DNA from: an uncultured bacterium
GTDB lineage: Bacteria > Auribacterota > Auribacteria > Auribacterales > Auribacteraceae
Assembly (NCBI GenBank): GCA_964451165.1
Contig: CAYVGJ010000019.1
Location: 1,524 to 65,523, forward strand
Reading direction: 5' to 3'
DNA: 64,000 bases
This document shows, in pieces, positions 6,130-35,641 of this stretch (position 1 is its first letter; each line of letters begins with the position of its first letter). The notes beneath the pieces are model-generated. The model had not been told where the DNA came from and did no database searches. It was given only the letters and a program-made list of their open reading frames with translations. Position numbers and translations under genes: made by a program.

Positions 6130-6199
6130 TGTATAACAGAATTAAGAGGATTACAGGAACATAACTTTATTTATAAACTCAAATTGACGAGGGGGAATC

Positions 6200-6829: not shown

Positions 6830-6875
6830 TTTAACATATATTATAATGATGAATTTTTATTGAGGAGATTTAAAT

Positions 6876-8969: not shown

Positions 8970-9009
8970 TTATTATAATATAAATAATAAATTAAGGAGA
9001 TTAGACAAG

Positions 9010-9762: not shown

Positions 9763-9774
9763 TCATAAATATTT

Positions 9775-11130: not shown

Positions 11131-11243
11131 TAAAGAAAATAATCATCCTGCATATTACTGACCTAAAAATAAATAAATTATGCAAAATGATCTATATTTT
11201 TTACATAATATCCGATATATATAATAAAATATAGGTGAATTTA

Positions 11244-12650: not shown

Positions 12651-12733
12651 TTCATTTTTTTTGTCAGACTGGTTTTTTACATTTTATAATTACAATAAAA
12701 ATTGTTTTTAAATTTTTCAGCAAGGAGGGTAAA

Positions 12734-14062
12734 ATGGGTAAAACATCTCTGATTGTACTTGATATTGTGGGTTTATCACCTGCTTTACTTAAATATAAAG
12801 ATCGAATACCTAATATAAATTCAATAATCACTAAGAATGGCTTTTTGAGTTTAAAACCGCCATTTCCGGCGTTAACCTGTACTTTTCAGGCGAGCCTGAC
12901 TACAGGAGAAACACCTTCATCACACGGTTCTGTTTGTAACGGTATTTATGATAGAAAAACGAGGGAAGTTAGTTTCTGGGGGAGGTACAACAGTATTTTA
13001 TCAGCAGACAGAATCTGGAAAAAATTAAATATAAAAACAAGTGTTCTTTTTTTTCAAAACAGTGTTTATTGCGAGGCGGATTATGTAGTTACACCTGCGC
13101 CCATACATAATCATGACGGAAGCATGATTATGTGGTGTTACTCAAAACCTGCAAATTTGTATTCTGAACTTATTGATGGTTTGGGAAGGCCTTTTAATCT
13201 GATGAATTTTTGGGGGCCGATGACTTCATTTGAATCATCAAAATGGATCTTTGATGCGGCAAAGTATGTATTTGAAAAATATTCTCCCGAATTGAATTAT
13301 ATTTATATTCCACATTTGGACTATAGTTCCCAAAAGTTTGGGCCATTTGCATCCCAGACGCTTGATGATCTGGTTAAAGTTGATGAACTTGTGGGAGAAT
13401 TAAAAGATTTTGCGGGCAAAAAGGGAGCGGGTATTATTATTTTATCTGAATATGGTTTGGTTGAAGTAAAACAAGGGATAGATATAAATAGAATTTTTAG
13501 AAAAAATAACTGGTTGAAGACAATATCAATTCAAGGGAAAGAATATATTGATTTTGAATCCAGCAATGCTTTTGCCATGGTTGACCATCAAATAGCACAT
13601 ATCTATATACAAGATAAAAACATTATCAAAGATATCAAATCAGCTATAGAAAATATTGATGGTGTTGATTATGTTTTAGATTCGACAACAAAAAAAGATT
13701 ACAAAATCGATCATCCTAATAGTGGCGAACTTATAGCTGTTGCTAAAAAAGATAGCTGGTTCGATTACTATTGGTGGTTGGATGATGCTTGTGCTCCCGG
13801 ATTTACCCGGACCGTCGATATACATAGAAAACCCGGATACGATCCTCTGGAACTTTTCTTTGATCCGTCAATAAAAGGTATACCGTATAATACCGGGCTG
13901 ATAAAGGGGTCCCACGGTAGGCCTGCGTTTGCGGAAGATGAACTTGCGGTTTTTATCGCTGATATTCCCGGTTGGGATTATTCAGCGTTTTTCGGAATCG
14001 AAACTGAGCTTGTTACTGCTGAGGATGTTGGAAAAGCGGTTAAAAAATATTTCCTCGGTTAA
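12734..14062 (+). CDS. Alkaline-phosphatase-superfamily protein of the type I phosphodiesterase/nucleotide pyrophosphatase family (EboF-like).
   Basis: MGKTSLIVLDIVGLSP...LTCTFQASLTTGETPSSHGS fits the NPP/AP nucleophile-region pattern T-F-x4-[ST]-x2-TG-x2-P-x2-HG. Strong SD (AGGAGGG). Confidence 0.7.
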   Translation: MGKTSLIVLDIVGLSPALLKYKDRIPNINSIITKNGFLSLKPPFPALTCTFQASLTTGETPSSHGSVCNGIYDRKTREVSFWGRYNSILSADRIWKKLNIKTSVLFFQNSVYCEADYVVTPAPIHNHDGSMIMWCYSKPANLYSELIDGLGRPFNLMNFWGPMTSFESSKWIFDAAKYVFEKYSPELNYIYIPHLDYSSQKFGPFASQTLDDLVKVDELVGELKDFAGKKGAGIIILSEYGLVEVKQGIDINRIFRKNNWLKTISIQGKEYIDFESSNAFAMVDHQIAHIYIQDKNIIKDIKSAIENIDGVDYVLDSTTKKDYKIDHPNSGELIAVAKKDSWFDYYWWLDDACAPGFTRTVDIHRKPGYDPLELFFDPSIKGIPYNTGLIKGSHGRPAFAEDELAVFIADIPGWDYSAFFGIETELVTAEDVGKAVKKYFLG

Positions 14063-14077
14063 TAGAAGGGATTGTAG

Positions 14078-15298
14078 ATGGAAAATCATAATGATAATAA
14101 TAAAATTGGTGTATGGCTTATTGGCGCATTTGGATCGGTTGCTTCATGCGTTATTCTTGGGTCACAAGCTATAGCGAAAAAAAGGTGTTCATCGATCGGA
14201 CTTATTACAGAACATAATTTCGCCCGTGATATTGATTTCATTGATTTCAACAATATTGTATTTGGAGGTGTGGATGTCCGCAAAGGTGATATTTATTCTA
14301 CATTAACCGATCTTCATGAACGGGCTAATGTAATTTCTTCAAAACTAATTGAGGAATTTTCGTGCGAATTAAAAAATATTAATGGAAATATCTGTGCGGG
14401 ATTAAATCTTAATTGCGGCAAAGCAATAGATAACATTGCCGACGGTGATACATTATGCAATCAGATGTCACTGGAGGAAATTATAAAACATATAAAGGCA
14501 GATCTAAACCGATTTAAAATTAATAATCATTTATCGCATGTTATTGTTGTAAATGTTGCGTCTACTGAGCAATATATGCAAATTCAGGATCAAGATTCAA
14601 CCTTTGAAGGGATTAAAACAGCTATATCTGAGAATAAAAAATGTATATATCCGGCGAGTGTAATTTATGCCTGGGCGTCAATAGACGCTGGATGTTCGTA
14701 TATAAATTTTACTCCATCGATTGGGGCATCTCTTGATGGTGTAAAAGAGCTGGCGCACGAGAAAAAAGTACCGATATCGGGTAACGATGGAAAAACAGGA
14801 GAAACATTGATAAAATCCGTCCTTGCGCCAATGTTCGTATATCGCAACCTTGAGGTATTAAGCTGGGAGGGTTATAATCTGCTTGGCAATTATGATGGGT
14901 TAGTGCTGAACGATCCAAAAAACAAAGAGACAAAAATCAGGTCGAAAAACCGGTCTTTGACAAAAATACTCGGATATCAGCCTCATTCATCTGTTCATAT
15001 AGATATGGTTCCATCGCTGAATGATTGGAAAATTGCCTGGGATTTCATTCATTTTAAAGGGTTTATGGAAACACCGATGATTATGCAGGTTGTCTGGCAG
15101 GGTTGCGATTCAATTCTCGCCGCGCCACTGATTCTTGATTTGATAAGATTTACGGATTTAGCGAAACGATACGGTGAATACGGTGTGCAGAACCATCTGG
15201 CATGTTTTTTTAAGGATCCAATAGACTGTGATAACTATGATATGAGTACCCAATTTGAAAAGCTCGTGATATATATGAATTTAAAAAGGCGTAACTGA
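14078..15298 (+). CDS. Myo-inositol-1-phosphate synthase family protein (archaeal/bacterial-type IPS-like NAD-dependent sugar-phosphate cyclase).
   Basis: KIGVWLIGAFGSVAS (cf. archaeal MIPS KVWLVGAYGIVST), NDGKTGETLIKSVLAPMFVYRNLEV, HFKGF and AAPLILDLIRF match conserved MIPS motifs. Length is 406 aa. Confidence 0.8.
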   Translation: MENHNDNNKIGVWLIGAFGSVASCVILGSQAIAKKRCSSIGLITEHNFARDIDFIDFNNIVFGGVDVRKGDIYSTLTDLHERANVISSKLIEEFSCELKNINGNICAGLNLNCGKAIDNIADGDTLCNQMSLEEIIKHIKADLNRFKINNHLSHVIVVNVASTEQYMQIQDQDSTFEGIKTAISENKKCIYPASVIYAWASIDAGCSYINFTPSIGASLDGVKELAHEKKVPISGNDGKTGETLIKSVLAPMFVYRNLEVLSWEGYNLLGNYDGLVLNDPKNKETKIRSKNRSLTKILGYQPHSSVHIDMVPSLNDWKIAWDFIHFKGFMETPMIMQVVWQGCDSILAAPLILDLIRFTDLAKRYGEYGVQNHLACFFKDPIDCDNYDMSTQFEKLVIYMNLKRRN

Positions 15299-16785
15299 TG
15301 GATTTTTTGTTCGGAATAATTTTTAGGGAGAATATCGATCATTTAATCAGGGAAAAACGATTCTGGTTAATTGTAATAACAATATTTTTTATATTCGGAT
15401 TGTTTGTTGCTATCGATTTATCTTCTGCTTTACCTGTTGAAAACTACCATGCCGAAGGAAGAATTTTTTTCCCTCCTGAGTTTACCAGAAAATTAATATT
15501 TTTTCAGGTAATAGCGTTTTTATTTACTTTACCTTTTTTATCATCTTTACCAATATATTTAAATAAAGATAAGAAAAGGGAATCTATTATTTTATCATCG
15601 CCATATAACAAAGCAAAAATAGCAGTTCAGCGAATTATGGCTGTTCTGGTGCCGGTATTTCTTATTCAGATTTTATTCTTTACAATTCTTTTTTTGTCAA
15701 TGTATATAAATCATGACGCAACCTGTTTGACAATTTTAAAATCACAGCTGATTTTACTTGTTCTATCAGTATTTTATCTTTGTTCGGGTTTGTTTTTGGG
15801 GCTTTTATTAAAATCATCTTTCTTTCCATTGTTCGTAAATTCCATATTAACTATTTTTCTTATCTTTGATATTTACATTATTGGACCGTTACTATCTACT
15901 ATTTCTGAGCCTGAAACAATAATCGATTTTGCACTTTTGATAAACCCGTTTTCTGTTATTTCATCGGCGATAAATTACGACGTGATGCGATCTGGATTTT
16001 TGTATCAGACCGCGCAAGTTGTTATGTATCGTTTTAATTATCCTTCGATTATGGAATTTTTTGGTGTTTTTGGTATTGCCAGCCTCGTAATGTTTCTTTT
16101 TGGTGTTCTTATAATGTTTAAATCAAAAAATATTTGTGATGATATTTTCAATAAAAAATCAAATGAGGTTGTCGACATTAAATTTGAACTTGATAATTCT
16201 ATAGATCTTTTGATCTCTCAAAGAAGATATGATGCCTTAACAAAATTATTATCGGATAAATTTGGATCAAAGAAAAAAGTTTCTCAATTTCTCGGCAATA
16301 TAGGGTTTGTTTCTGATTCTAATGCATATCCATATGATTGGGAAACGCCTTGTTTTCATCTTGTTTTTTTCGCCAAACTTTATGGTGAAAAAAATGAAAA
16401 AATAGAAACTATCCTGAAAGAAGCTGGATTAAGTGAATATTCTTATAAAAAAATGAAAGATTTAACCGAATCTCAAAAAAAGCTTATCGTACTTTTACGG
16501 TCATTGATAAATAAAAGTGAATTGATTATTTGGGATAACCCTTTTCCCTCGCTTGAAGATCGCGATAGAAAAATAGCGTTGCGAATATTGAGGAAATTTA
16601 TCGGAAATGATAAAAAGGCGATCATAATATCACCAACAGTCTGTGATATTATTAATTATGGAGATATCGATAGAATAATATATCTAACTAACAACAAGAA
16701 TAGTTTTGATTTAAAATCGGACAAAATTAACGAAGAAATTCTTTATAAAATTTTTTCCGGCTGGAAACATGAAAATCAAAAGTGA
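15298..16785 (+). CDS. Polytopic membrane protein with a C-terminal ABC-ATPase-like domain in which all catalytic motifs are degenerate (pseudo-NBD).
   Basis: The N-terminal ~270 aa are hydrophobic with at least 6 TM helices. The C-terminal ~215 aa align to an ABC nucleotide-binding domain, for example NIGFVSDSNAYPYDW...FFAKLYG against RIGYVPQE...LTV.ENL.FFARLYG. The Walker A site is destroyed (SQRRYDALT replaces GPNGAGKST). The signature motif is LTESQ rather than LSGGQ. In Walker B (LIIWDNPFPSLED) the catalytic Glu is Asn. The H-loop His is Pro (AIIISPT). The start overlaps the MIPS-like stop in an ATGA arrangement. Confidence 0.6.
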   Translation: MDFLFGIIFRENIDHLIREKRFWLIVITIFFIFGLFVAIDLSSALPVENYHAEGRIFFPPEFTRKLIFFQVIAFLFTLPFLSSLPIYLNKDKKRESIILSSPYNKAKIAVQRIMAVLVPVFLIQILFFTILFLSMYINHDATCLTILKSQLILLVLSVFYLCSGLFLGLLLKSSFFPLFVNSILTIFLIFDIYIIGPLLSTISEPETIIDFALLINPFSVISSAINYDVMRSGFLYQTAQVVMYRFNYPSIMEFFGVFGIASLVMFLFGVLIMFKSKNICDDIFNKKSNEVVDIKFELDNSIDLLISQRRYDALTKLLSDKFGSKKKVSQFLGNIGFVSDSNAYPYDWETPCFHLVFFAKLYGEKNEKIETILKEAGLSEYSYKKMKDLTESQKKLIVLLRSLINKSELIIWDNPFPSLEDRDRKIALRILRKFIGNDKKAIIISPTVCDIINYGDIDRIIYLTNNKNSFDLKSDKINEEILYKIFSGWKHENQK

Positions 16786-18043
16786 AAACAATAATTATAA
16801 GAGTATAAATAATTTTTTTAAAAAAATATTATTTATTCAGAAGTGTTACAAATTAGAGATATTATTCTACCGGTGTGTCATTTTTATTTTGTTTTTTCTA
16901 AATGTAATATTGATAAAAAATTTCTTCTCATATGGTTACCCATTTGAAAATATAATTTTAAACGGGTACTGTATCCTCATCGCAATATCAGTTACGGCAA
17001 TTTGTTTTATTTATAATTATTTTGTGAAAATAGATTTAAAAAAATATGTGAAACAGGCGGATAATTATCTTGAAATGTCTGACAGATTAACGGCATGTTA
17101 TGAGATAATATATTGTAAAATGGACTGGCATGATTGGTCTTCAGCAATTATATCTGATACAGCGGATATATTTATTAATAAAAAAATGAAGCTTATGCAG
17201 ATCTTCCCTTATAAAATGAAAAAAGAAATGATATACATTATAATACTCATTGGTGTAGCTCAAATTATAAATATTATTTCCAAAACAAATGTCGGAGAAA
17301 AAATACGTTCCGAAAGTTATGTAAAATACCTTAGTATTGAATCAGCCGGATTAAATCGTGTAGCTGAAAAAATGGAGACAAAAAATGATGATTTGCGAAT
17401 ATTAAGAGCTATACATAAACCGGCAACGGTAATGAAATATGTGGCGGATACCGGTCAGGGAGATCTGAAAAAAAGTAAGGCGTTTATTGTCGGGCTTCTT
17501 AAAGAAGCGGAAAAAACGTTAAAAAAAGAAATAATAGATAGGCCTGAAGACAAAAATATGAATTACACTTTATCAAGAATAAAAAAAATATCAAATACTC
17601 TTGAGAATCATTGGAAATCAGTTGATTTGAAACATAAAATAGACGAAAGTATAACTGGTGAATCAAAAGGGGATGGTGTCGGGAAAGGTTTGGGCAGAGT
17701 GTGGAAATCAAAAGAAGATAGTACGATTCACGACACTGCCAGTATGCGCAGGATTGTCGAGCTGATTGAAGAATCGGGAGTTGGTCAAAAAAACGCTGAT
17801 TCTTCTATTGGTAATGAATCGAAGTATAAAGATAAAAGTATTATTTATGATTCCACGACAGGAGGCGGGAGTAGTGACAAAAGCAAGGACATAACAAATA
17901 ATCGGAGTAAATCTGTAAACTCAAATACAGAAATATTACCGCTGATAAATTTTGATGGCGAAATAATAAAAGGCGCTGTTTGGATGGATGCTCTTCCGTC
18001 GAACAGAAAAGAATGTGTTAGAAAATATTTTTCATTTGAATAA
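16769..18043 (+). CDS. Membrane-anchored hypothetical protein (N-terminal TM helices, charged coiled-coil-like middle, Gly/Ser/Lys-rich C-terminal region).
   Basis: An ORF with hydrophobic N-terminal segments. It overlaps the upstream gene by 17 nt and lies directly upstream of moxR. This is the position where DUF4129/DUF4350-type membrane partners of MoxR systems are usually found. That assignment was not verified. Confidence 0.5.
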   Translation: MKIKSENNNYKSINNFFKKILFIQKCYKLEILFYRCVIFILFFLNVILIKNFFSYGYPFENIILNGYCILIAISVTAICFIYNYFVKIDLKKYVKQADNYLEMSDRLTACYEIIYCKMDWHDWSSAIISDTADIFINKKMKLMQIFPYKMKKEMIYIIILIGVAQIINIISKTNVGEKIRSESYVKYLSIESAGLNRVAEKMETKNDDLRILRAIHKPATVMKYVADTGQGDLKKSKAFIVGLLKEAEKTLKKEIIDRPEDKNMNYTLSRIKKISNTLENHWKSVDLKHKIDESITGESKGDGVGKGLGRVWKSKEDSTIHDTASMRRIVELIEESGVGQKNADSSIGNESKYKDKSIIYDSTTGGGSSDKSKDITNNRSKSVNSNTEILPLINFDGEIIKGAVWMDALPSNRKECVRKYFSFE

Positions 18044-18054
18044 CGGGTGATTAT

Positions 18055-19050
18055 ATGACTGAAAATATTATCGAATCTGTAGGAGAATTCAAAAAAAATT
18101 TTTTTGAAATGCGCGATGAGATTGGGAAAGTTGTTGTAGGCCACAATCAGATAATTGAATTTGTTCTTATAGCCCTGATTTCCGACGGACATGTTTTGCT
18201 CGAAGGTGTTCCTGGAATCGGGAAGACATTGTTGGTTAAGACATTAAGCGCGGTACTCGACCTGAAATATTCACGTGTGCAGTTTACACCGGATCTTATG
18301 CCGGCCGACATCATTGGTACACGAGTAATTTTGGAGAACGAATCGGGAGATAGGCAGTTCGATTTTCAACAGGGCCCTGTTTTTGCGAATATAATATTGG
18401 CGGATGAGATCAACAGGGCTTCACCGAAAACACAATCGGCTTTGCTTGAGGTTATGCAGGAACATAGCGTTACAGTAGCCGGAATGACATATAAAATAGA
18501 TAGCCCGTATATGGTTTTGGCTACACAAAATCCTGTTGAGATGGAGGGTACATATCCTTTGCCTGAAGCTGAGAAAGACAGGTTTATGTTTCAATTGAAC
18601 GTACTTTATCCTGATAAAAATGAACTGGTTGAAATAGGGAGGAGAATGGCGGGGAAAAAAACACATCAGGTTGAAAAAATTGCTGATTGTGCCACCATAA
18701 AATTTATGCATGAAATATCTCATGAAGTACCTTTGCCGGAATTGGTTGAGGAATTCGCCGTTAAACTGGTTATGGCTACTCATCCCGGATCGTCAACGAG
18801 TTCGTCTATGGTTCAGAGATATGTAAAATACGGAGCTAGCCCGCGGGCATTGATATCTATTATACGTGCGGCAAGAATAAAAGCTCTTTTAGCCGGAAGA
18901 TTTAATGTTAGTACCGAAGATATTTTATATGTGATACATCCTTGTTTAAGGCACAGGCTGATTCTCTCTTTTGAGGCCCAAGCGGAAGGTGTCAAGGTGG
19001 ATGAAATTATCGATAATGTTATCGAAAAATACCGAAATAGTTTGATATGA
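18055..19050 (+). CDS. moxR: MoxR-family AAA+ ATPase.
   Basis: Walker A is GVPGIGKT. Also LLEGVPGIGKTLLVKTLSAVLDLKYSRVQFTPDLMPADIIGT and ILADEINRASPKTQSALLEVMQE, which is the typical MoxR AAA_3 core. Confidence 0.9.
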   Translation: MTENIIESVGEFKKNFFEMRDEIGKVVVGHNQIIEFVLIALISDGHVLLEGVPGIGKTLLVKTLSAVLDLKYSRVQFTPDLMPADIIGTRVILENESGDRQFDFQQGPVFANIILADEINRASPKTQSALLEVMQEHSVTVAGMTYKIDSPYMVLATQNPVEMEGTYPLPEAEKDRFMFQLNVLYPDKNELVEIGRRMAGKKTHQVEKIADCATIKFMHEISHEVPLPELVEEFAVKLVMATHPGSSTSSSMVQRYVKYGASPRALISIIRAARIKALLAGRFNVSTEDILYVIHPCLRHRLILSFEAQAEGVKVDEIIDNVIEKYRNSLI

Positions 19051-19925
19051 ATCATGAAATTGATTTCTATGATCCTGATTTTCTCGATAAACTGAAGGAT
19101 CTTCATATTGTTACCAGAAAATTATTTCAAGGCCGGTTTAAGGGAAAACGCAGAAGCTTGAAACGCGGTTTAAGCCTTGAATTCGCTGACTACAGAAAAT
19201 ATTCGCCGGGCGATGATTTCAGGTTTGTCGACTGGAATATCCTTGCGCGATTAAAAAAGATTATGGTCAGGTCGTTCTGGGATGAGTCCAACATCAATAT
19301 AATTTTGTTTATAGATGTAAGTAAATCAATGTGTTTCGGCGATTTAAGCAAATCTATATATGCGCGGAAAGTTGCCGCATGTCTCTCATCTGTTGCGCTG
19401 GAAAATCATGATAGTGTCGGTATTTGCCTTTTTTCCGATGGAATCGCCAGGGCGATTTCTCCCGTGCACGGTAGCAATAATTTATTAAAAATATTCGCGA
19501 TTTTGAATTCCATCAAAACAGATGGCAAAACAAATATTCATTTATCCATATCACAGTATATTAAGACTATTAAAGATAAAGGAATCGCTGTGGTTATCTC
19601 CGATTTATTCGATTCCGATGGATACAAAAAATCATTTGCCGAACTGATCAATAAGGGGTTTGAGGTAAATGTCATTCACCTGAAAAGCGGTAATGTTGAT
19701 TATGACAAAATATCACACAATGTTTGTCTTGAAGATTCGGAAACCGGAGAATATCTGCATGCCGATTTGGATTCAGATCAGGTTATAGATGAAGAAAAAA
19801 AGTATTGTAATGAAATCAGAATGTATTGTTTATCAAATCAGATAGCGTATTTTCCTGTTGAAACTTCGTATCCTTTCGACAAATTCGTGCTTGATTATTT
19901 TAAATATCATATCACGGCGGGTTAA
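19047..19925 (+). CDS. DUF58 protein (vWA-like partner of MoxR ATPases).
   Basis: RGLSLEFADYRKYSPGDDFRFVDWNILARL matches the DUF58 signature G.EF...R.Y..GDD.R.IDW...AR. The start overlaps the moxR stop (ATGA). Confidence 0.8.
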   Translation: MNHEIDFYDPDFLDKLKDLHIVTRKLFQGRFKGKRRSLKRGLSLEFADYRKYSPGDDFRFVDWNILARLKKIMVRSFWDESNINIILFIDVSKSMCFGDLSKSIYARKVAACLSSVALENHDSVGICLFSDGIARAISPVHGSNNLLKIFAILNSIKTDGKTNIHLSISQYIKTIKDKGIAVVISDLFDSDGYKKSFAELINKGFEVNVIHLKSGNVDYDKISHNVCLEDSETGEYLHADLDSDQVIDEEKKYCNEIRMYCLSNQIAYFPVETSYPFDKFVLDYFKYHITAG

Positions 19926-19930
19926 TTTAT

Positions 19931-21595: not shown

Positions 21596-24087
21596 TTAGT
21601 TTTGTTAATCCCGGTTATCTGTTACTTTTTATTTTATTGATTTTGTGGATGATATATCTGCATAGATTCAATTTATCAATATTATTGCGGGTGATATCGA
21701 TGATTTTTCTGATATTTGCTGTATCGGGACCTGTTTTCATATTTTGGAAGCAGGATAAATCCGTTGTATGGTGTATTGACCGATCCCCAAGCATTCCGCA
21801 AAATGAAAAGAGGGATATATATCATTTTCTAAAAAGAATTTACGCTCAACCTGTTTTTTTCAGCGATACAGCTATATACAAAAAATATTATAATCTAACT
21901 GATTTAGATAATGATACCGGGAAAAACACTAAAATAGTGCCTGCAATAAAAACCACCGAAAAAATTGATCAGAATAGAAGTAGAAATTTTATCATTTTTA
22001 CCGATGGCAATGTTTCTGATAGAGATACTTTTTTTGCGCTGATTAATCAGTACCGCAATGATGGTTTTATCTTTAATTTTTTCCCTCTTGGTTATTCGGT
22101 TAAATCGGAAGTATCAGCCGGTGAAGCGCGGATTACAAATGGGACAATGGTCACAGTTCCATTTTATGCGTCCGGGGACATTAAAGATGCTGAAGTTTAT
22201 CTGGAGAATGAATCCGGAATTAAAGTGTTAAATGAAAAAGTGGATTTTGTTTCCGGATACGCTGAGCTAAAATGTAATATTCCCGAACCGCAAAAACCTT
22301 TTGAAATCTTTAAGGTGTTAGTGGTTGCGGATAAAGATACTTACCGTGAGAATAATTGTATAAAATTCAATATAGAGAAAAGTAAAAGCAAAAAGATACT
22401 TCGTTTATCGTTGCGTAAATCAAGCGGGTTAATAGGGAGTTTGTTGAAAGACAAATTTGATGTTGTTGAAGCTGTAACTACTTCTGAGATAAACAAATAT
22501 TTACCGATGATACGGCATTTCGACCTTGTTTTGCTTGATGATGTTCCGGCATACCTTCTTACTCCTGATCAGATGGCTTTAATAGCAGAAAGTGTTAGGA
22601 ATTATGGTATAGGCCTGATTATGACAGGATTGCATGATAGTTTCGCGTTGGGAGGATATGTTGATTCTCCAGTTGAAAAAGCGTTGCCCGTTACGATGGA
22701 GCCGAATCGCCAGGATAAAAAGAAAGATTTTGTGATTCTTCTTGATAAATCAGGAAGTATGGATGAAAAGGATCAAAGCGGAATAACCCGTATGCAGTAT
22801 TCTTTAGATGCGATTTATACAATATTGCGGGCAAAAAAAGCTAATGAGCGGTTTGGTATAACGGTTTTTGATAAAAAAGCATATTCTGTTATTCCTGTTA
22901 GCGGGGAAATCAACAATATTCAGGCGGAAAAAATTCTATCAAAGATAGAGCCGCATGGCGGAACGGATCTTTATGGTTTATTGGCTGAAATATCTAATTC
23001 ATTAAGGAATAACGGGCAACAAAAGACACATTATATATTATTGACTGACGGGCAGACGGATCGAAGGGAAGAATGTCTTGATCTGTCGGCTGAAATTGCG
23101 GGAAAAAATTGTTCCTTGTCTGTAATAGGTATAGGTGCAGATAAAAACGATTCTTTTTTGGAAAATCTTGGCAAAAATGGAAAAGGCAGAACATACATTA
23201 TAGATAATTTATCTGTGTTATCTCAGGTTTTTTTTAGGGAAAAAGAAATAGAAAAAGGCGGAAATATTGTTGAATTTCCTGTATATCCTCTGACAAATCC
23301 TGATGGTGAAATTTTTGCGGATGAGAAAAAGTTGCCTCTTTTAAATAACTACACGAGATTGTCCATTAAAGAATCTTCTTCAGCAATAATAAAGTCTCCT
23401 TCAGGTGATCCGATTTCTGCTGTATGGAGGTATGGTGTTGGAAAGAGTGCTGTATTCGCTTCATCTCTGGAAGGCGAATCTGTTTCTGAATGGTTAAAAT
23501 CGGGTGATTATAATAATATATTTATTCCATTATTCGAATATTGTTCAAGGAAAATTAATGAATCCGGCGCTCAAGGATTTGATTGGACAATATATACTGA
23601 TGAAGGATATGTGAAACTGAATTTTGTTCCTGATGAAATATCTATCAGATATCCGGACGGGCGCATAGCCAAACTTGAATTTTATATTTCAGGTGAAAAA
23701 TGTTACGCGTCGTTTTATGCGGATGTAGCAGGTATGTATTTTTTTGATGTGAAATTAAAAAACGGCGTGCATCTTTATAAGGACCAGATGATAAGTTATT
23801 CTGCGGAATATAAAAAGTTAGGGACAAATAATAACTTTTTTTATCTGGTTTCAATGTTATCCGGAGGTAAAGTGTTCAGAAACGTGAGTGAATTAAAATG
23901 CTTTAATCCGGAAACAAAAATGGAAATCAAACTTGATCTTTTCAACATTTTTATAATATGCAGTTTATGTTTATTTATAACTGAGCTGGTAATACGCAAA
24001 AAAATGAAATTCAATGAAATATATCAATTATGGAGAAGCCAAGGGTTTGTGAATCTATTTAAACAAAAATATTTTGATAAAAATTAA
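21592..24087 (+). CDS. BatB-like membrane protein with two vWA domains (the second has an intact MIDAS motif) and a C-terminal TM anchor.
   Basis: VVWCIDRSPSIP...FIIFTDG; FVILLDKSGSMDEKD...GGTDLYGLL...HYILLTDGQTD (DxSGS, T and D MIDAS residues); C-terminal FIICSLCLFITELVIRKKMK. The start overlaps the upstream stop. Confidence 0.8.
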   Translation: MISFVNPGYLLLFILLILWMIYLHRFNLSILLRVISMIFLIFAVSGPVFIFWKQDKSVVWCIDRSPSIPQNEKRDIYHFLKRIYAQPVFFSDTAIYKKYYNLTDLDNDTGKNTKIVPAIKTTEKIDQNRSRNFIIFTDGNVSDRDTFFALINQYRNDGFIFNFFPLGYSVKSEVSAGEARITNGTMVTVPFYASGDIKDAEVYLENESGIKVLNEKVDFVSGYAELKCNIPEPQKPFEIFKVLVVADKDTYRENNCIKFNIEKSKSKKILRLSLRKSSGLIGSLLKDKFDVVEAVTTSEINKYLPMIRHFDLVLLDDVPAYLLTPDQMALIAESVRNYGIGLIMTGLHDSFALGGYVDSPVEKALPVTMEPNRQDKKKDFVILLDKSGSMDEKDQSGITRMQYSLDAIYTILRAKKANERFGITVFDKKAYSVIPVSGEINNIQAEKILSKIEPHGGTDLYGLLAEISNSLRNNGQQKTHYILLTDGQTDRREECLDLSAEIAGKNCSLSVIGIGADKNDSFLENLGKNGKGRTYIIDNLSVLSQVFFREKEIEKGGNIVEFPVYPLTNPDGEIFADEKKLPLLNNYTRLSIKESSSAIIKSPSGDPISAVWRYGVGKSAVFASSLEGESVSEWLKSGDYNNIFIPLFEYCSRKINESGAQGFDWTIYTDEGYVKLNFVPDEISIRYPDGRIAKLEFYISGEKCYASFYADVAGMYFFDVKLKNGVHLYKDQMISYSAEYKKLGTNNNFFYLVSMLSGGKVFRNVSELKCFNPETKMEIKLDLFNIFIICSLCLFITELVIRKKMKFNEIYQLWRSQGFVNLFKQKYFDKN

Positions 24088-24106
24088 CTGATAATATTAA
24101 AAAATC

Positions 24107-24134
24107 TTGACTGCTTTTATCCAAAAGGTATTAT
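24107..24134 (+). promoter_or_regulatory. Candidate sigma70-like promoter (TTGACT, 16-bp spacer, TATTAT) for the 24196-29426 operon.
   Basis: TTGACT lies at 24107-24112 and TATTAT at 24129-24134, in the 108-bp gap after the Bat-like operon. The 24196 gene has a strong SD (AAGGGGGA). Confidence 0.3.
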
Positions 24135-24195
24135 GATTATCGTGGGTTATTATCTCATACTAAATTACACTAACATTTGTTAAAGGGGGACTAAT

Positions 24196-25302
24196 ATGGT
24201 CATAAAAGAAAAGCTTGTTTTATTATTCGCATTGTTGGCATTGGCTATTGGTTTCGATGTTTACGCAAAAGACAAAAGCAGTGAACCAAAAGCGGAAGAT
24301 GATTTAATCGATACTTCATTGAAAAAAGAGATAGAAGCATCAATTAACAGGGGATTGCGATATTTGCGCAACAACATGGATGCTGAAGGTTCATGGTCAA
24401 ACCATCCGGGAGTAACTGCGATAGTATTGAAAGCGTTTGCTTCCAGCCCTAATAAGTACGATGAAACCGATGGCCCATTTATAAAAAAACCTGCGCAATA
24501 TCTCATGAACCTTCAGAAAAAAGATGGTTCCATATATGACAAGGATTTGCCGAATTATGTAACATCAAATGCGGTTTGCGCTCTTGTAGCGTTGAAAAAT
24601 TCGAAATACGATGATGTTATAAAGAAAGCACAAGGTTTTATTCTCGATTGCCAGCTTGATGACAAAGAAGGATACGCGCCCGGAGATAAGTTTTATGGCG
24701 GTATAGGTTACGGAAGCACTGAACGGCCGGATTTGTCCAATCTTCAGACCGCTCTGGAAGCTTTGAAAGAGACAGACCTACCTGCTGATAATGAAGCATG
24801 GAAACGTGCTGTAGCGTTTATTGAAAGATGCCAGAACCGCAGTGAATCAAACGACCAGAAATGGGCAGGAAATGATGGCGGTTTTGTGTATTTGCCGGGC
24901 GATAGTAAAGCCGGTGGTACAAAATCTTATGGATCTATGACGTACGCCGGTTTGAAAAGTTTTCTATATGCCAATGTTGATAAAAATGATCCAAGAGTTC
25001 AGGCAGCTTATAAATGGATTATCAAACATTATACATTGGATGAGAATCCCGGCATGGGCACTCAGGGCCTTTTTTACAGTTATAATACTTTCGCTAAAGC
25101 GCTTTATGCCTACGGGGAACCGTATATAGTCGATTCAAAAGGCGAAAAACGAAATTGGAGAAAAGATCTGGCGGAAAAAATAATATCCATTCAGAATTCT
25201 GATGGATATTGGATGAACGAAAATAACCGCTGGTGGGAATCAGATAAAAATCTTGTTACCGCTTATGCGATAATTGCTCTTGAAAATTGTTTAAAAAAAT
25301 AA
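24196..25302 (+). CDS. Secreted alpha/alpha-toroid protein with prenyltransferase/squalene-oxidase (terpene cyclase/mutase-type) repeats.
   Basis: Signal peptide. Repeated QxxDGSW/GGW-type motifs: AEGSWSNHPG, LQKKDGSIYD, GNDGGFVYLPG, IQNSDGYWMNEN. Confidence 0.65.
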   Translation: MVIKEKLVLLFALLALAIGFDVYAKDKSSEPKAEDDLIDTSLKKEIEASINRGLRYLRNNMDAEGSWSNHPGVTAIVLKAFASSPNKYDETDGPFIKKPAQYLMNLQKKDGSIYDKDLPNYVTSNAVCALVALKNSKYDDVIKKAQGFILDCQLDDKEGYAPGDKFYGGIGYGSTERPDLSNLQTALEALKETDLPADNEAWKRAVAFIERCQNRSESNDQKWAGNDGGFVYLPGDSKAGGTKSYGSMTYAGLKSFLYANVDKNDPRVQAAYKWIIKHYTLDENPGMGTQGLFYSYNTFAKALYAYGEPYIVDSKGEKRNWRKDLAEKIISIQNSDGYWMNENNRWWESDKNLVTAYAIIALENCLKK

Positions 25303-25311
25303 AGGAATAAA

Positions 25312-26064
25312 ATGAAACTGTCTGTAATATTGTTTTTTTATAGCCTGTTATTGGTTACGTATCCGGTTATGGGGCAGGAAAAAGGAAAAGAAACAAAAAT
25401 GCCGGATCGAACGAGGAGTGCCGGAACTCCTCCAAAAGTGGATAATGCCGGGCAGGTAAGTAAAATTTCCGATGGGATTTTTAAAATCGGGAAAGTAATG
25501 TTGAATCAAAAAGAAGGTTACGCGTCCTTACCAGCTACTGTTGCGCTAAAAGAAGGGTTGATTGAACTTTTGTTGTGCACAAAGTGGGGCAGGGTCCACG
25601 AGACGGTATTGGTTACTGAAGCGTATCCGGTTCATCTGCAGACAGCATTGTTATTGTTGGGATTAAAATTTGGATCCCCGGTTGAGTTTGCCGGGGATTC
25701 GAAATCTCCATTGGGTGATAAAACCGAAATTTGGGTTGAGTGGGGAAAAGGTGATAAAAAAAATAAAGTAAGGATTGAGCAATTAGCCATCGATAAAACA
25801 AAAAATGAATCAATGCCGAATGTGGATTGGGTTTTCACCGGTTCACAATTTGTCAATGGTGTTTTTTTCGCTCAGCAAGAAGGATCAATAATAACTACTT
25901 ATAGAGATCCGAACACGATGTTTGATAACCCGTTGCCTGAAGGCGCCGACGATACGGTCTATCTTGTCAACAGCAAAGTTGTTCCCGATATTGGTACACA
26001 AGTCACAGTATATTTTAAAAAACCTTCTCAATCTAAGGAAGAGCAATTAAAATCACAAAAATAA
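25312..26064 (+). CDS. Secreted hypothetical protein.
   Basis: Signal peptide MKLSVILFFYSLLLVTYPVMG. No recognisable motif. It lies 9 nt after the previous gene, so it is probably co-transcribed. Confidence 0.55.
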   Translation: MKLSVILFFYSLLLVTYPVMGQEKGKETKMPDRTRSAGTPPKVDNAGQVSKISDGIFKIGKVMLNQKEGYASLPATVALKEGLIELLLCTKWGRVHETVLVTEAYPVHLQTALLLLGLKFGSPVEFAGDSKSPLGDKTEIWVEWGKGDKKNKVRIEQLAIDKTKNESMPNVDWVFTGSQFVNGVFFAQQEGSIITTYRDPNTMFDNPLPEGADDTVYLVNSKVVPDIGTQVTVYFKKPSQSKEEQLKSQK

Positions 26065-26123
26065 ATCCTCAAAAAATCGCGTTCAGCACTAACGCATTCA
26101 TAAATTATCCATTAAATGAGGCA

Positions 26124-26909
26124 TTGTATAAAATTAGCCGGTGTGGGTATGGTTCAGTCGAAATACTTGCCGATATTCCTCATGGCATGGAACTTATTAA
26201 AAATACGGGATTGCTGGCAGAAATTTCATCAATCTTAAAATCAACCGGGCTAAAGATATCAAATATCAACGCGAATACAGCAGTTGGATTGTTGGGATTG
26301 CCTGCTGGCGCAAATGAATTTGAACCATCTCTTTCCAATCCTGACGAGTCGATACGAAAAAAACGGGTAAAGTTTACTCTTGACATAATTAATCTCGCTT
26401 TGGATTTGGGGGCAGATACCATCAGCATTACAACAGGACGGAAATATAACAATTTATCGGAACGTGAACAGCTTGATTTTTTTTATTTATCGCTTGATGA
26501 AATACTGAAAATAGCTGAAAATAAAAAAGTTTTCATAGGAATAGAACCGGAACCAGGTTTGTTGATAGGCTCAACAGATGAAGCCGGATTGGCTGTAGAA
26601 AAATTCGGATCGCAATATTTAGGAATCAACTGGGATATCGGGCATGCGGAATCGAATTACGAAGATTTGATTTCAGCGATTGAAAAATGGGGAAAATACT
26701 TTTTCAATCTCCATATCGAGGATATAAAAGATAAATTTCATTATCATCTTATTCCAGGTGAAGGTAATATTGACTTTAAAAGTTTATTTTACAATCTTTT
26801 TCGTTTAGAGTATGATAAATATCTTACGGTGGAATTATATACATACAGGGATAACCCGGAGTTTGCCGCAAGAAAAGCGATTAATTATCTTATCGATTTA
26901 GAATTTTAA
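26124..26909 (+). CDS. Xylose-isomerase-like TIM-barrel protein (sugar phosphate isomerase/epimerase family, EboE-like). The true N-terminus probably lies upstream of the annotated TTG (see finding).
   Basis: FIGIEPEPGLLIGS...GINWDIGHAESN...NLHIEDIK...HLIPGEGNIDFKSLF is typical of the PF01261 family. The frame is open back to 26037 and encodes KIAFSTNAFINYPLNEALYKI, which aligns with the N-terminus of the paralog at 27725 (MRLAFSTNAFKRYSLEQSVELI). No ATG, GTG or TTG is available there. Confidence 0.75.
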   Translation: MYKISRCGYGSVEILADIPHGMELIKNTGLLAEISSILKSTGLKISNINANTAVGLLGLPAGANEFEPSLSNPDESIRKKRVKFTLDIINLALDLGADTISITTGRKYNNLSEREQLDFFYLSLDEILKIAENKKVFIGIEPEPGLLIGSTDEAGLAVEKFGSQYLGINWDIGHAESNYEDLISAIEKWGKYFFNLHIEDIKDKFHYHLIPGEGNIDFKSLFYNLFRLEYDKYLTVELYTYRDNPEFAARKAINYLIDLEF

Positions 26910-26925
26910 CATATAGGGGGAAATA

Positions 26926-27723
26926 ATGAAGATAATTGAGCCTCACATCCATATGCTTGCACGTACAACGGATGATTACCAGAGAATGGCTGTTTCAGGT
27001 ATTTGCGCTGTTATAGAACCTGCGTTTTGGCTTGGACATGACAGAAAATACGCCGGGAGTTTTTTCGATTATTTTGATCTTCTTCTTGAGTTTGAGTCCC
27101 AACGCGCGAGAAAATATGGGATTGAGCATTATTCATGTATTGGAGTTAATCCGAAAGAAGCGAATAATATTGAAATCGCAAAAGAAGTTATTTCAAAAAT
27201 GGGGGATTTTCTCGATAGAGAAAAAGTTGTTGGTGTTGGAGAAATCGGGCTCGATAAAATTACCGACGCCGAAGAAGAAGTATTGAGGCTCCAGATAAGG
27301 TTGGGGATAGAAAAAAAACTTCCTTTGCTTATTCATACACCTCATAATAATAAGGTGGAAGGGACAAAGATTATATTAAAAGTTATTGACGAAGAAAAAG
27401 CTGATCCCCGAATGACTCTGATAGACCATAATGTAGAAGATACAATTGAAATGTCGCTTGATTCCGGGTGTTGGTTGGGTATGACGCTGTATCCTGTAAC
27501 AAAAATGTCGTCGGAACGGGCCATTGAGGTACTTAAAAAATATGGAGTAGAGCGGATGATGATAAACAGTTCCGCGGACTGGGGTTATTCTGATCCGCTT
27601 ATGGTACCGATGACTTGTTATAAGATGTCCCAGTGCGGTTTTAGCGAAGATCAGATAAAGAAGCTCGTTTTCGATAACCCATATAGTTTTTATAGTAAAT
27701 CAAATAGGTTTAAATTAAATTAA
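26926..27723 (+). CDS. TatD-family metal-dependent hydrolase (EboB-like).
   Basis: IEPHIHML (HxH metal site), GVGEIGLD (the TatD GEIGLD motif) and LLIHTPH. GGGGGA RBS. Confidence 0.8.
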   Translation: MKIIEPHIHMLARTTDDYQRMAVSGICAVIEPAFWLGHDRKYAGSFFDYFDLLLEFESQRARKYGIEHYSCIGVNPKEANNIEIAKEVISKMGDFLDREKVVGVGEIGLDKITDAEEEVLRLQIRLGIEKKLPLLIHTPHNNKVEGTKIILKVIDEEKADPRMTLIDHNVEDTIEMSLDSGCWLGMTLYPVTKMSSERAIEVLKKYGVERMMINSSADWGYSDPLMVPMTCYKMSQCGFSEDQIKKLVFDNPYSFYSKSNRFKLN

Positions 27724-27724
27724 T

Positions 27725-28561
27725 ATGCGCCTTGCTTTCAGTACAAACGCGTTTAAAAGGTATTCTCTGGAACAGTCTGTAGAGCTTATAGCAAAAGCCG
27801 GGTTCAGTGCTGTGGAAATACTTTGCGATACTCCACATTTGTATCCGCCGCTTTTTTCTCAAACAGATTACGATAACCTTTCAAATGTATTGCGTGATAA
27901 TAAAATAGATGTGGCGAACCTTAACGCATTTACTTTTTTCGCGAAGGGAAATACGTATAATCCGTCATGGATTGACAACGATATTAAAATACAGGATGAA
28001 CGCATAAATCACACTATAAACGCTGTTCTTGCCGCGTATAAACTAAATGTTGGTAATATATCAACTGAACCCGGCGGCCTTTACGATAAAAAAAGATCTG
28101 ATCGGGAAGAACTTATCGATATTTTTGCCGCGAATCTGAAAAAAGTTTTAAGTATAGCGGAAGATAAAAAAGTTTGTATTCTTATAGAACCCGAGCCTGA
28201 GCTGATAATAGAGACAAGTTCTCAGATGCTTGAGTTTATAGATAAAATCGCTTCGCCGTTTATAGGTGTGAATTTCGATATAGGTCATTTTCATTGTGTA
28301 GGCGAAACACCGCTTGACGCGTTAAAGAAGTTATACCCGTATGTAAAACACGTGCACCTGGAAGATATATTAAACAGGCGACATATGCATCTTATTCCCG
28401 GTGAAGGAGAAATAGATTTTGAGCCGGTTATTGAGTTTTTAGCTGTAAATGATTACAAAGGATATGTTACCGTTGAGCTGTATCCATACCAGGATGATCC
28501 GTTTTCAACAGCAGTTCAATCCATGAATTATTTGAGAAAGTATGAAAGATATTTTAAGTAA
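27725..28561 (+). CDS. Xylose-isomerase-like TIM-barrel protein, second paralog.
   Basis: MRLAFSTNAF..., ILIEPEPELIIE, GVNFDIGHFH, HVHLEDI, HLIPGEGEIDFEPV. It starts 1 nt after the TatD stop. Confidence 0.8.
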   Translation: MRLAFSTNAFKRYSLEQSVELIAKAGFSAVEILCDTPHLYPPLFSQTDYDNLSNVLRDNKIDVANLNAFTFFAKGNTYNPSWIDNDIKIQDERINHTINAVLAAYKLNVGNISTEPGGLYDKKRSDREELIDIFAANLKKVLSIAEDKKVCILIEPEPELIIETSSQMLEFIDKIASPFIGVNFDIGHFHCVGETPLDALKKLYPYVKHVHLEDILNRRHMHLIPGEGEIDFEPVIEFLAVNDYKGYVTVELYPYQDDPFSTAVQSMNYLRKYERYFK

Positions 28562-29426
28562 AAACCGCAATAAAATAAAAGCGGTTTTTAAACTTATCAG
28601 GTTTCCAAATACGTTTACTGCAATCGCCGATTCAATATCTGGTTATTTCCTGATTGCCGATTTCCAGCGAATGGATTTCAGAATTCTTTTTTTACTGTCG
28701 GTTATTTCGTTTACTTTTTACGCATCCGGTATAGTTATAAATGATTTGTTTGATTATAAAAAGGATTCTGTATCTCATCCATATCGGCCGCTTCCATCAG
28801 GTGCTGTAAAAATCAGTGAGGCGATAATATTAATATTTATTTTGATAATTGCCGGGTTATCCGCTTCTTTGATGGTGGGGCGAAAAACTTTTTTTGTTGC
28901 TGTTTTTCTTGGTATTTCAATATTTATGTATGATAAAACATTTAAAAAAGGTTTTTTTGTTCCTGGATTTTTTATGGGGTTGTGCAGGTTTTTCAATTTT
29001 ACACTTGGATTTAGTGTAGTTGAATGGGGTAATGGTATACCGGGAAAGATTTGGGTTTTCCCGTCGTTATTGCTTGTATATGTTTGTATTATTACTATGA
29101 TAAGTAGGAGAGAGAAAACGGTTACAACCAAAAAAGCTTCATTATGGATTTTCACATGGATTAGTATATCCTATGTTCTGATTTTCTGTTATAACCTTGT
29201 TAATAATTATTTGGGGATTATGTATTTATTATTATTTTTTTTATTGATGATAAAAATTAAAATAAAATCCTGTAATGTAGATAAACTTTTAAAGTGGTTA
29301 ATATTAGGAATTATTTTTTATGACGCTTCTTTCGTCGCATTCTATAAAGGAATTTCAATTTCGTTATATATTGTAATAATTAGTATTCCCGCCATATTGC
29401 TTTCCAGATCAATAAAAATGACATAG
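28542..29426 (+). CDS. UbiA-family aromatic/polar-head prenyltransferase, integral membrane (EboC-like).
   Basis: VINDLFDYKKD (the NDxxDxxxD Asp-rich motif) and YRPLPSG, with about 8 TM segments. It overlaps the upstream gene by 20 nt. Confidence 0.8.
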   Translation: MKDILSKNRNKIKAVFKLIRFPNTFTAIADSISGYFLIADFQRMDFRILFLLSVISFTFYASGIVINDLFDYKKDSVSHPYRPLPSGAVKISEAIILIFILIIAGLSASLMVGRKTFFVAVFLGISIFMYDKTFKKGFFVPGFFMGLCRFFNFTLGFSVVEWGNGIPGKIWVFPSLLLVYVCIITMISRREKTVTTKKASLWIFTWISISYVLIFCYNLVNNYLGIMYLLLFFLLMIKIKIKSCNVDKLLKWLILGIIFYDASFVAFYKGISISLYIVIISIPAILLSRSIKMT

Positions 29427-32240: not shown

Positions 32241-32294
32241 AAAATACCTCATTTTGTTTTACTAAGATGAGATTACATCTTTCTTTCTTAAATT

Positions 32295-33809: not shown

Positions 33810-33841
33810 AATAAAATACCCCCAAATAGATTGTTAAATAT

Positions 33842-34270: not shown

Positions 34271-34304
34271 TTAAACCCCCTGATTTATTTTAATAGGTTT
34301 TTAA

Positions 34305-35606: not shown

Positions 35607-35641
35607 ATCAGGTTCCTCCTAATAAAATAGATAAGTGTTGG

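Follow-up and report, generated by a model that had tools for sequence, protein, structure and literature searches.

Few conserved bacterial gene sets whose biochemistry is still unsettled are as widespread as the ebo genes, which have newly been tied to thallusin, a picomolar seaweed morphogen. Canonical eboABCDEF operons are described from Aureibacter tunicatorum (plasmid pAT1), Maribacter and Nostoc punctiforme (Yurchenko et al. 2016, PMC5133447; Klicki et al. 2018, PMC6282210). According to a recent preprint (Kallscheuer et al. 2026, bioRxiv 10.64898/2026.05.21.724671), thallusin formation requires each of eboB, eboC, eboE and eboF, hydroxyquinolines are farnesylated by EboC enzymes from three phyla, and thallusin arises in a final step presented as a ring rearrangement of oxidative type. 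The same preprint presents Actinomycetota ebo loci without eboD that are flanked by ino1, encoding an inositol-3-phosphate synthase, and by ino2 and ino3, encoding ‘isomerases/dehydratases’; the eboD-less Saccharomonospora sp. CNQ-490, which has ino1-3, still makes thallusin, and a proposed inositol route leads to the same deoxy-inosose that EboD forms from mannose-6-phosphate. We found no mention of inositol in earlier ebo papers. Here we describe a 14-gene array in a 64-kb stretch of contig CAYVGJ010000019.1 (the whole stretch is called the window below) that, judging from its predicted proteins, likely encodes an EboD-less, inositol-type ebo pathway joined to two accessory modules.

Three enzymes of the array are, by sequence, clear homologues of canonical EboF, EboB and EboC. 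Our canonical reference was the PGAP-annotated eboABCDEF operon of A. tunicatorum pAT1, the sole canonical operon in the plasmid collection, whose proteins we used as phmmer queries against every open reading frame (ORF) of the window at E < 0.01. Only three window genes were matched, by EboF (310 bits), EboB (283 bits) and EboC (74 bits). The type I phosphodiesterase/alkaline-phosphatase-family protein (PDE) that opens the array is 37.5% identical to Aureibacter EboF over 437 amino acids (aa) and 43% identical to the PDE of a Bacillus cluster introduced below, bearing out the original prediction that it is EboF-like. The TatD-family amidohydrolase is 49% identical to Aureibacter EboB over 262 aa and 48% identical to the Bacillus and Haloferax cluster TatD proteins, and generic TatD models and the PDB TatD/YcfH entries match it at only 34-42 bits. 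For the UbiA-family membrane prenyltransferase the best NCBIfam family is EboC (NF035940; 151.3 bits, full length), with SCO3242 second at 79 bits and other UbiA families at 74 bits or less; it is 26% identical to Aureibacter EboC over 258 aa and 32% identical to Bacillus EboC, and has the motifs NDxxDxxxD, YDKxxK and MGLCRxxN in common with canonical EboC. When 1.84 billion cluster representatives were searched exhaustively with HMMER, only 13 UbiA relatives came out at E ≤ 1e-30, as against 2026 at E ≤ 1e-10. EboC is matched at E ≤ 1e-40 by 140 of the 150 best representatives; SCO3242 is matched as well by 81, and 11 reach E ≤ 1e-71 with EboC, about equivalog level. The window UbiA is, on this sequence evidence, a divergent member of the EboC/SCO3242 group. 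Both proteins thus lie where the original prediction had placed them, TatD with EboB and UbiA with EboC, an assignment that rests on NCBIfam scores and on pairwise identities against a single canonical operon.

The gene next to PDE encodes a myo-inositol-1-phosphate (inositol-3-phosphate) synthase (MIPS). Its best solved relative is the Archaeoglobus fulgidus enzyme (1U1I; 292 bits, 41% identity), as against about 85 bits for eukaryotic types and 45 bits for the Mycobacterium tuberculosis type, confirming the archaeal-type call made earlier. Its identity to the cluster MIPS proteins is 43% for Haloferax and 35% for Bacillus. Equivalents of eight A. fulgidus positions that we take to be catalytic were checked and all are conserved (D225, N255, D261, K274, K278, K306, D332 and K367), so that, as far as residues can tell, the window MIPS looks catalytically active.

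Two small xylose-isomerase-like TIM barrels, TIM1 and TIM2, complete the set of pathway enzymes. TIM1 has orthologues in TIMa of Bacillus (41%) and TIMb of Haloferax (37%), and TIM2 in TIMb of Bacillus (40%) and TIMa of Haloferax (39%). A duplicated TIM barrel had been proposed for this locus: there are indeed two PF01261 genes, but at 36% identity they are old paralogues and not the result of a recent duplication. Their best NCBIfam or named relatives are IolO, epimerases, IolE and IolE-like proteins and hydroxypyruvate isomerase, and their relatives of solved structure are MJ1311, TM0416, AsbF and IolE; TIM2 is 22% identical to Aureibacter EboE over 196 aa. As phmmer queries at E < 0.01, EboD and EboE matched none of the ORFs of the 64-kb window. 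The idea of an ebo set in which MIPS replaces EboD therefore stands for the EboB-, EboC- and EboF-like genes, the MIPS and the lack of EboD, but is incomplete in that EboA and EboE homologues are absent too.

Set against canonical eboABCDEF, the locus is alike in its EboB-type TatD, its EboF-type PDE, the EboC-type UbiA motifs, the presence of a sugar-phosphate cyclase and xylose-isomerase-like TIM-barrel chemistry. It differs in that canonical operons have EboA, a DHQS-like EboD and an EboE of 370-400 aa, whereas the window instead has MIPS and TIM barrels of 261 and 278 aa, and in that its genes stand in two blocks within an array that also holds MoxR/VWA genes and genes for two secreted proteins. 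The Actinomycetota type of the preprint is likewise without eboD and has an inositol-3-phosphate synthase gene and putative isomerase/dehydratase genes adjoining ebo; TIM1 and TIM2, conserved partners of MIPS, may correspond to Ino2 and Ino3. That type is described as keeping eboE and is an experimentally confirmed thallusin producer, whereas the window has no EboE orthologue, and the accessible part of the preprint makes no mention of YdjY, toroid or MoxR/VWA modules (all three described below) for it.

The same gene families stand together in distant organisms. A Bacillus sp. JAS24-2 operon on pl626 reads TIMa-TatD-TIMb-EboC-PDE-MIPS, as do those of five other Bacillus cereus-group megaplasmids; PGAP names its UbiA ‘UbiA-like protein EboC’ (304 bits, above the EboC cutoff) and annotates its TIM barrels as sugar-phosphate isomerase. 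On Haloferax volcanii pHV3 (NC_013964.1, about 242.7-249.4 kb), MIPS-PDE is divergent from TatD-TIM-UbiA-TIM. These clusters (the Bacillus type for example in NZ_CP031069.1) share all six families with the window, with one-to-one TIM orthology, and the Bacillus cluster shares its internal orders TIM-TatD-TIM-UbiA and PDE-MIPS; unlike the window they are contiguous, and the Bacillus UbiA scores 304 bits against 151 for that of the window. Among uncultured bacteria (loci are cited by our L numbers), L130 has a contiguous MIPS-YdjY-TOR-TIM1-TatD-TIM2-UbiA-PDE, where TOR denotes an alpha/alpha-toroid protein, L097 has MIPS-YdjY-TOR-TIM-UbiA-PDE-TIM, and L012 has NUDIX-MIPS-YdjY-TOR-TIM1-TatD-TIM2-UbiA-TonB receptor-TonB-PDE. 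The TonB-dependent receptor and TonB genes of L012 lie between UbiA and PDE at 7685-10907 and would fit uptake of a metal-chelating product. The co-occurrence of these families outside the window, on which the original prediction depended, is thus seen as contiguous clusters in Bacillus pl626, Haloferax pHV3, L012, L097 and L130, and because the same families are adjacent in many unrelated lineages the association exceeds chance. An inositol-3-phosphate synthase gene lies beside EboB-, EboC- and EboF-like genes, with no EboD in the locus, in the window, Bacillus, Haloferax, L012, L090, L097 and L130.

We also counted neighbours within 10 kb of UbiA in 80 genome loci, mostly from Planctomycetota, that were retrieved by alignment with UbiA; relatives were collected through pattern scans and tblastn, a word-indexed homologue search having returned just 4. 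A small TIM barrel is near UbiA in 46 of the 80 loci, PDE in 25 and TatD in 13, and neither EboA nor EboD is near it in any. Across the 12 loci scored as MIPS-type, the window included, none has EboD, EboA or a long EboE, and two small TIM barrels lie within or nearby. EboD-type loci have the opposite make-up: L087 and L138 have an EboE of 370-400 aa and no MIPS, and in the Aureibacter operon and L138 both MIPS and the small TIM barrels are absent; L138 scores 560 bits with the DHQS model NF004852 and 426 bits with EboE. A free-standing MIPS-TIM1-TIM2 trio occurs in Desulfobacterota (L094 and L098), including Desulforhabdus amnigena. From these gene contents the swap appears to be one of modules, MIPS and two small TIM barrels in place of EboD and EboE (and EboA). 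In two loci from Verrucomicrobia (L009 13007-14931 and L011 12854-14844), a small TIM2-like ORF comes after UbiA-PDE and either overlaps an EboE-like ORF (71-80 bits) or abuts on it; the cluster types may here be fused or joined by an intermediate form.

In the window, the pathway genes belong to 14 ORFs, all on the + strand, at 12734-29426 (Table 1); ORF checking together with Pfam and NCBIfam scans upheld every gene and domain call made for the region. Intergenic gaps range from -20 to +59 nucleotides (nt), with the single exception of 108 nt at 24088-24195. The window has a G+C content of about 35%, and tRNA and Rfam scans of its 64 kb gave no match. An AAGGAGG ribosome-binding site lies immediately 5' of the PDE start (12734), and a promoter-like TTGTCA-18-TATAAT lies upstream of it at 12661-12690; a second promoter-like element, TTGACT-16-TATTAT, stands inside the 108-nt gap at 24107-24134, and no terminator-like hairpin was found there. 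Since the promoter/terminator scan of the window yielded no more sites than shuffled sequence, both elements are weak as promoter candidates, and the operon boundaries rest on the gaps and on comparative breakpoints.

Table 1 Genes of the array and its internal gap, with coordinates in the window
Feature	Length (aa)	Coordinates	Strand	Family evidence
EboF-like type I phosphodiesterase/alkaline-phosphatase-family protein (PDE)	442	12734..14062	+	PF01663, 155 bits
Archaeal-type myo-inositol-1-phosphate (inositol-3-phosphate) synthase (MIPS)	406	14078..15298	+	PF07994, 178 bits; PF01658, 115 bits
Membrane protein with C-terminal degenerate ABC-ATPase-like domain	495	15298..16785	+	Partial ABC_tran, 24.6 bits, model positions 79-136
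Membrane-anchored protein of no known family	424	16769..18043	+	No Pfam or NCBIfam family
MoxR-type AAA+ ATPase	331	18055..19050	+	AAA_3, 210 bits; AAA_lid_2; L090 counterpart 481 bits
DUF58/VWA protein	292	19047..19925	+	PF01882, 106 bits; L090 counterpart 303 bits
BatA-like membrane VWA protein	554	19931..21595	+	VWA_2, 29 bits; L090 counterpart 172 bits
Large membrane VWA protein	831	21592..24087	+	VWA, VWA_2 (56 bits), VWA_3
Gap between gene 8 and TOR gene		24088..24195		Sole sizeable intergenic gap of the array; candidate internal promoter
Secreted single-domain alpha/alpha-toroid protein (TOR)	368	24196..25302	+	SQHop_cyclase_C, 42.5 bits (gathering score 26.1)
Secreted YdjY-domain protein	250	25312..26064	+	NCBIfam NF040466, 131 bits (cutoff 50)
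Small xylose-isomerase-like TIM barrel 1 (TIM1)	261	26124..26909	+	PF01261, 121 bits
EboB-like TatD-family amidohydrolase	265	26926..27723	+	PF01026, 65 bits
Small xylose-isomerase-like TIM barrel 2 (TIM2)	278	27725..28561	+	PF01261, 136 bits
EboC-like UbiA-family membrane prenyltransferase	294	28542..29426	+	PF01040, 64 bits

We compared this layout with that of R3-B46 (L090), a Candidatus Auribacterota metagenome-assembled genome whose MIPS and UbiA are 53% and 34% identical to those of the window. Its block PDE-MIPS-500 aa-421 aa-MoxR-DUF58-VWA-VWA reproduces the order of window 12734-24087 over all eight genes, and adjoining it, in divergent orientation, stands DUF1573-NosD-TOR-YdjY-TIM1-TatD-TIM2-UbiA. 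The rearrangement breakpoint coincides exactly with the 108-nt gap of the window and so supports two units, though the gap offers only a promoter-like match and no terminator. Two operons 10 kb apart had been proposed here; the break between them is borne out, but the interval is filled by eight tightly packed co-directional genes that are conserved together with PDE-MIPS. A third lineage, L095 (MIPS 55% identical), has PDE-MIPS-ABC-like-unknown, the first four genes of the block, and L003 (UbiA 51% identical) has BatA-VWA-TOR-YdjY-TIM1-TatD-TIM2-UbiA, the same as the window. By this comparison, the genes between PDE-MIPS and TOR are conserved partners of PDE-MIPS in this lineage and no mere spacer. 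The closest named relatives of the window MIPS (53%) and YdjY (57%) come from a Candidatus Auribacterota metagenome-assembled genome that also has a TOR homologue (63%), and the source lineage is probably related to this PVC-group phylum.

Within the middle block, the ABC-like membrane protein has no Walker A motif, and its signature (LTESQ) and Walker B (IIWDNP) motifs are altered. Its gene is conserved right behind MIPS in three lineages. In L090 and L095 the gene after MIPS encodes a homologue (about 205 bits), and its membrane part is 40% identical over 58 aa to the product of the gene after MIPS in Ca. Scalindua. The 424-aa protein has weak positional homologues before MoxR in L090 and L095 (47-59 bits) and in L181. 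In the 554-aa protein a BatA N-terminal domain scores 25 bits, marginally below the gathering score of 25.9, and homologues of the 831-aa VWA protein lie upstream of TOR in L003 (1037 bits) and at the block end in L090 (445 bits). MoxR AAA_3, DUF58, BatA-like and large VWA membrane proteins follow one another in the order usual for Bat/MoxR-DUF58-VWA ‘aerotolerance-type’ operons; unlike in typical operons of that kind, in the window and R3-B46 they are co-directional with PDE-MIPS and tightly packed behind it. Our literature survey, which included no search aimed at MoxR, BatA or VWA, brought up no published link of Bat/MoxR operons to ebo or inositol genes.

The second accessory module is the TOR-YdjY pair. 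Both proteins have N-terminal hydrophobic leaders in their sequences, in keeping with the earlier proposal that they are secreted. The YdjY gene had no Pfam-A match in our scan, and PF27149:YdjY is on record for an identical gene; its AlphaFold model (predicted local distance difference test (pLDDT) score of 87) shows a helix at 2-15 followed by a disordered linker. TOR belongs to a family whose alignment has many invariant residues, with only Q153 and D155 invariant in the region corresponding to DxDD. Its nearest PDB sequences are weak prenyltransferase-beta matches (E about 0.01), and a single-sequence structure model (pLDDT 53) was too poor to use. We considered TOR as the missing terpene cyclase of squalene-hopene type and rejected it: the protein is a single 368-aa domain, not a two-domain toroid, and without DxDD the label is unsupported.

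At least 583 relatives came out of a metagenome scan with the TOR alignment, and we kept 80. YdjY adjoins TOR in 21 of these 80 loci and ebo-type genes do so in about 11, MIPS-type (L125, L130 and L149) and EboD-type loci included. TOR stands beside ebo-like genes in L002-L004, L012, L097, L125, L130 and L138, and YdjY-TOR precedes the MIPS-type clusters L012, L097, L125, L130 and L090. The EboD-type L138 reads PEP-CTERM-YdjY-TOR-EboD-TatD-EboE-PDE-UbiA, and L128 and L133 are partial EboD-type contigs with YdjY-TOR. The pair also meets the MoxR/VWA genes elsewhere: TOR, alone or with YdjY, is directly beside MoxR-DUF58(-BatA-VWA), with no ebo genes, in L156, L157, L123 and L160, and in L117 about 3 kb separate TOR from a downstream MoxR-DUF58. 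In L181 (Ca. Scalindua rubra), the genes at 2897-17206 have the order MIPS, ABC-like membrane protein, a pair of TOR paralogues, three unknowns, MoxR-DUF58, with two radical-SAM genes, an O-methyltransferase and YdjY divergent from them, and none of UbiA, TatD and PDE within 8 kb. Neighbours in other long TOR loci are heterogeneous (TonB, GT2, kinase and others), and a family-wide theme for TOR context was dropped on that account. The Bacillus and Haloferax clusters have no YdjY/TOR and no MoxR/VWA genes; the absence of YdjY/TOR fits organisms without a periplasm. The association of YdjY/TOR with ebo genes is facultative.

Around the array, the window contains a NosD/beta-helix protein of 1143 aa (1297-4728, -) and a DUF1573/HYDIN-Ig protein of 382 aa (4694-5842, -). 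Their counterparts in R3-B46 (L090 3794-8314) stand immediately upstream of TOR-YdjY-TIM1-TatD-TIM2-UbiA and share its strand, so this may be a further associated pair or lineage synteny. Just upstream of the PDE gene, 6876-12650 (+) encodes three PKD-domain proteins and a PEP-CTERM protein (9010-9762), and a PEP-CTERM protein is also found immediately before YdjY-TOR-EboD in L138. Downstream, 31821-39212 (-) carries genes for ACT-domain proteins, an alginate-export-like porin, two phenylacetate-CoA-ligase-like proteins and an indolepyruvate/pyruvate:ferredoxin oxidoreductase pair, a predicted gene set that suggests anaerobic aromatic amino-acid metabolism; the indolepyruvate:ferredoxin oxidoreductase and the phenylacetate-CoA ligases suggest an anaerobe. 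At the far end, 55073-64000 (+), a giant RHS-repeat ORF (PF05593, 183 bits) that spans at least 2976 aa runs off the window with no stop codon inside it.

We propose the following scheme for the array. In the cytoplasm, MIPS would cyclise glucose-6-phosphate to inositol-3-phosphate. Conversion of the latter to a deoxy-inosose or polyhydroxy-aromatic acceptor would fall to the EboF-like phosphoesterase together with both TIM barrels, which are IolE/IolI/AsbF-like (dehydratase/isomerase type), and the EboB-like amidohydrolase would also have a part in it. This acceptor would be the same kind of intermediate as EboD's direct product from mannose-6-phosphate. At the membrane, the EboC-like UbiA would prenylate it; the lipophilic product would end up facing the periplasm, where it may be bound or processed by the two secreted proteins, YdjY and the alpha/alpha toroid, and the MoxR/VWA proteins would be linked to the pathway in a lineage-specific manner. 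Possible end products are a meroterpenoid of the saccharoquinoline/thallusin kind and a prenylated cyclitol lipid.

Several observations weigh against this proposal. The UbiA score of 151 bits is well under the EboC equivalog cutoff of 250, and MIPS lies near UbiA in only 5 of the 80 loci of the UbiA subfamily, TOR in 4 and YdjY in 2. EboE orthology of the TIM barrels is rejected, with NF035939 scores of 45 bits for TIM2 and 18 for TIM1 against a cutoff of 250, and EboE is among the four core genes that the preprint shows to be required for thallusin (bioRxiv 10.64898/2026.05.21.724671). EboA was found neither among the window ORFs (phmmer, E < 0.01) nor in the 80 related UbiA loci; the absence of EboD holds for the 64-kb window, and an EboD elsewhere in the genome is possible. 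An oxidoreductase that would take inositol to inosose is not visible in the array. On the accessory side, the DxDD motif is absent from the TOR family alignment, the YdjY model has no significant or informative structural neighbour in the PDB, and the TOR family is broad: among the 17 metagenome loci that extend 6 kb or more in both directions, 11 show none of these partners. Finally, products of MIPS-type clusters are known only for the preprint's Actinomycetota, and the window is known from its genes alone.

With regard to the oxidation step, genes for GSDH/PQQ-sugar-dehydrogenase-like beta-propellers adjoin MIPS-type clusters in L088 (4152-5573), L008 (3252-4772), L180 (6086-7934) and L089 (1-3071), and flank the Bacillus cluster too; a cytochrome c gene is adjacent to one of them, and another itself encodes a ‘PVC-type heme-binding CxxCH’ protein. 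Such dehydrogenases could supply the missing oxidation. The window itself contains no gene of this kind.

Other readings of the locus can be weighed against the same comparisons. The MIPS might simply serve housekeeping synthesis of inositol lipids or osmolytes, its place beside PDE being incidental. Its sequence is that of a typical, apparently active archaeal-type enzyme akin to A. fulgidus MIPS, which serves osmolyte synthesis, and the rarity of MIPS near UbiA would be expected under such a reading, but its relatives keep different company. PDE, small TIM barrels or YdjY/TOR adjoin MIPS in the neighbourhoods of all eight relatives (44-55% identical), and none of the eight listed neighbourhoods has a CDP-alcohol phosphatidyltransferase or inositol monophosphatase gene, so the inositol-lipid context that would have told against the original prediction was not seen. 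PDE-MIPS adjacency is moreover retained in Bacillus, Haloferax, R3-B46 and L095, and we regard this explanation as largely refuted and highly improbable. A further reading divides the array into two separate neighbouring systems, in which the first block would be an inositol-dependent envelope module acting with the toroid and YdjY proteins and the TIM-TatD-TIM-UbiA block would draw on another precursor. Ca. Scalindua rubra, with its MIPS, TOR and MoxR-DUF58 genes and no UbiA, TatD or PDE within 8 kb, is what such an envelope module might look like; TOR-YdjY stands directly before MoxR-DUF58-BatA without ebo genes in L156 and L157, and the two blocks are arranged differently in R3-B46. Yet Bacillus, Haloferax, L130 and L097, none of which has MoxR/VWA genes, keep PDE and MIPS contiguous with TIM-TatD-TIM-UbiA; PDE is itself an EboF homologue; and the blocks remain adjacent in both Auribacterota-like genomes despite rearrangement. 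Two independent systems therefore seem quite unlikely to us.

The array might, alternatively, be a thallusin/saccharoquinoline locus as in Actinomycetota, in which deoxy-inosose and aspartate would give trihydroxyquinaldic acid ahead of farnesylation by EboC. The window has EboB-, EboC- and EboF-like genes, a MIPS and two isomerase/dehydratase-like TIM barrels, which match much of what the preprint reports, namely the requirement for eboB, eboC, eboE and eboF, farnesylation by EboC and thallusin from the eboD-less Saccharomonospora; the TonB-dependent receptor and TonB in the L012 cluster would likewise suit a metal-chelating product. Opposed to this are the lack of an EboE orthologue in the window, a UbiA just 26-32% identical to the compared EboC-annotated proteins and below the equivalog cutoff, neighbouring genes that suggest an anaerobe where the last step is oxidative, and carriers ecologically distant from algal surfaces. 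Because EboE is missing, UbiA is divergent and the neighbours suggest an anaerobe, we do not favour thallusin as a firm claim and consider this outcome unlikely, and an EboD-less inositol-type pathway with two accessory modules, left open as to its product, is the reading that we prefer.

The 2026 preprint anticipates the idea of an inositol-type ebo pathway, and so, by implication, does the name EboC that PGAP gives to the Bacillus gene. New here are the module-swap picture, the split 14-gene arrangement in an Auribacterota-like lineage, the recurrent link of YdjY/TOR to ebo clusters of both cyclase types, and the link of YdjY/TOR and MIPS to MoxR-VWA operons. Cyclitol supply looks interchangeable, with an EboB/EboC/EboF core fed either by EboD and EboE (with or without EboA) or by MIPS and two small TIM barrels, and this constrains the identity of the shared intermediate. 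The inositol-type set occurs in the tractable Haloferax volcanii and in Bacillus cereus-group strains, which makes a genetic test of the route feasible. The recurrence of YdjY and toroid genes beside both cluster types, together with the link of MIPS, YdjY and TOR to MoxR/VWA genes, hints at the product's site of action. More speculatively, and with a low chance of holding in full, the ebo product of either cyclase type may be a membrane-embedded prenylated cyclitol derivative whose periplasmic side is handled by YdjY and the toroid protein, some lineages coupling this pair and inositol synthesis to MoxR-DUF58-BatA-VWA. If so, the long-enigmatic Bat/MoxR-VWA operons would gain a small-molecule or lipid partner, and the idea that ebo products act at the periplasm would gain concrete protein components.

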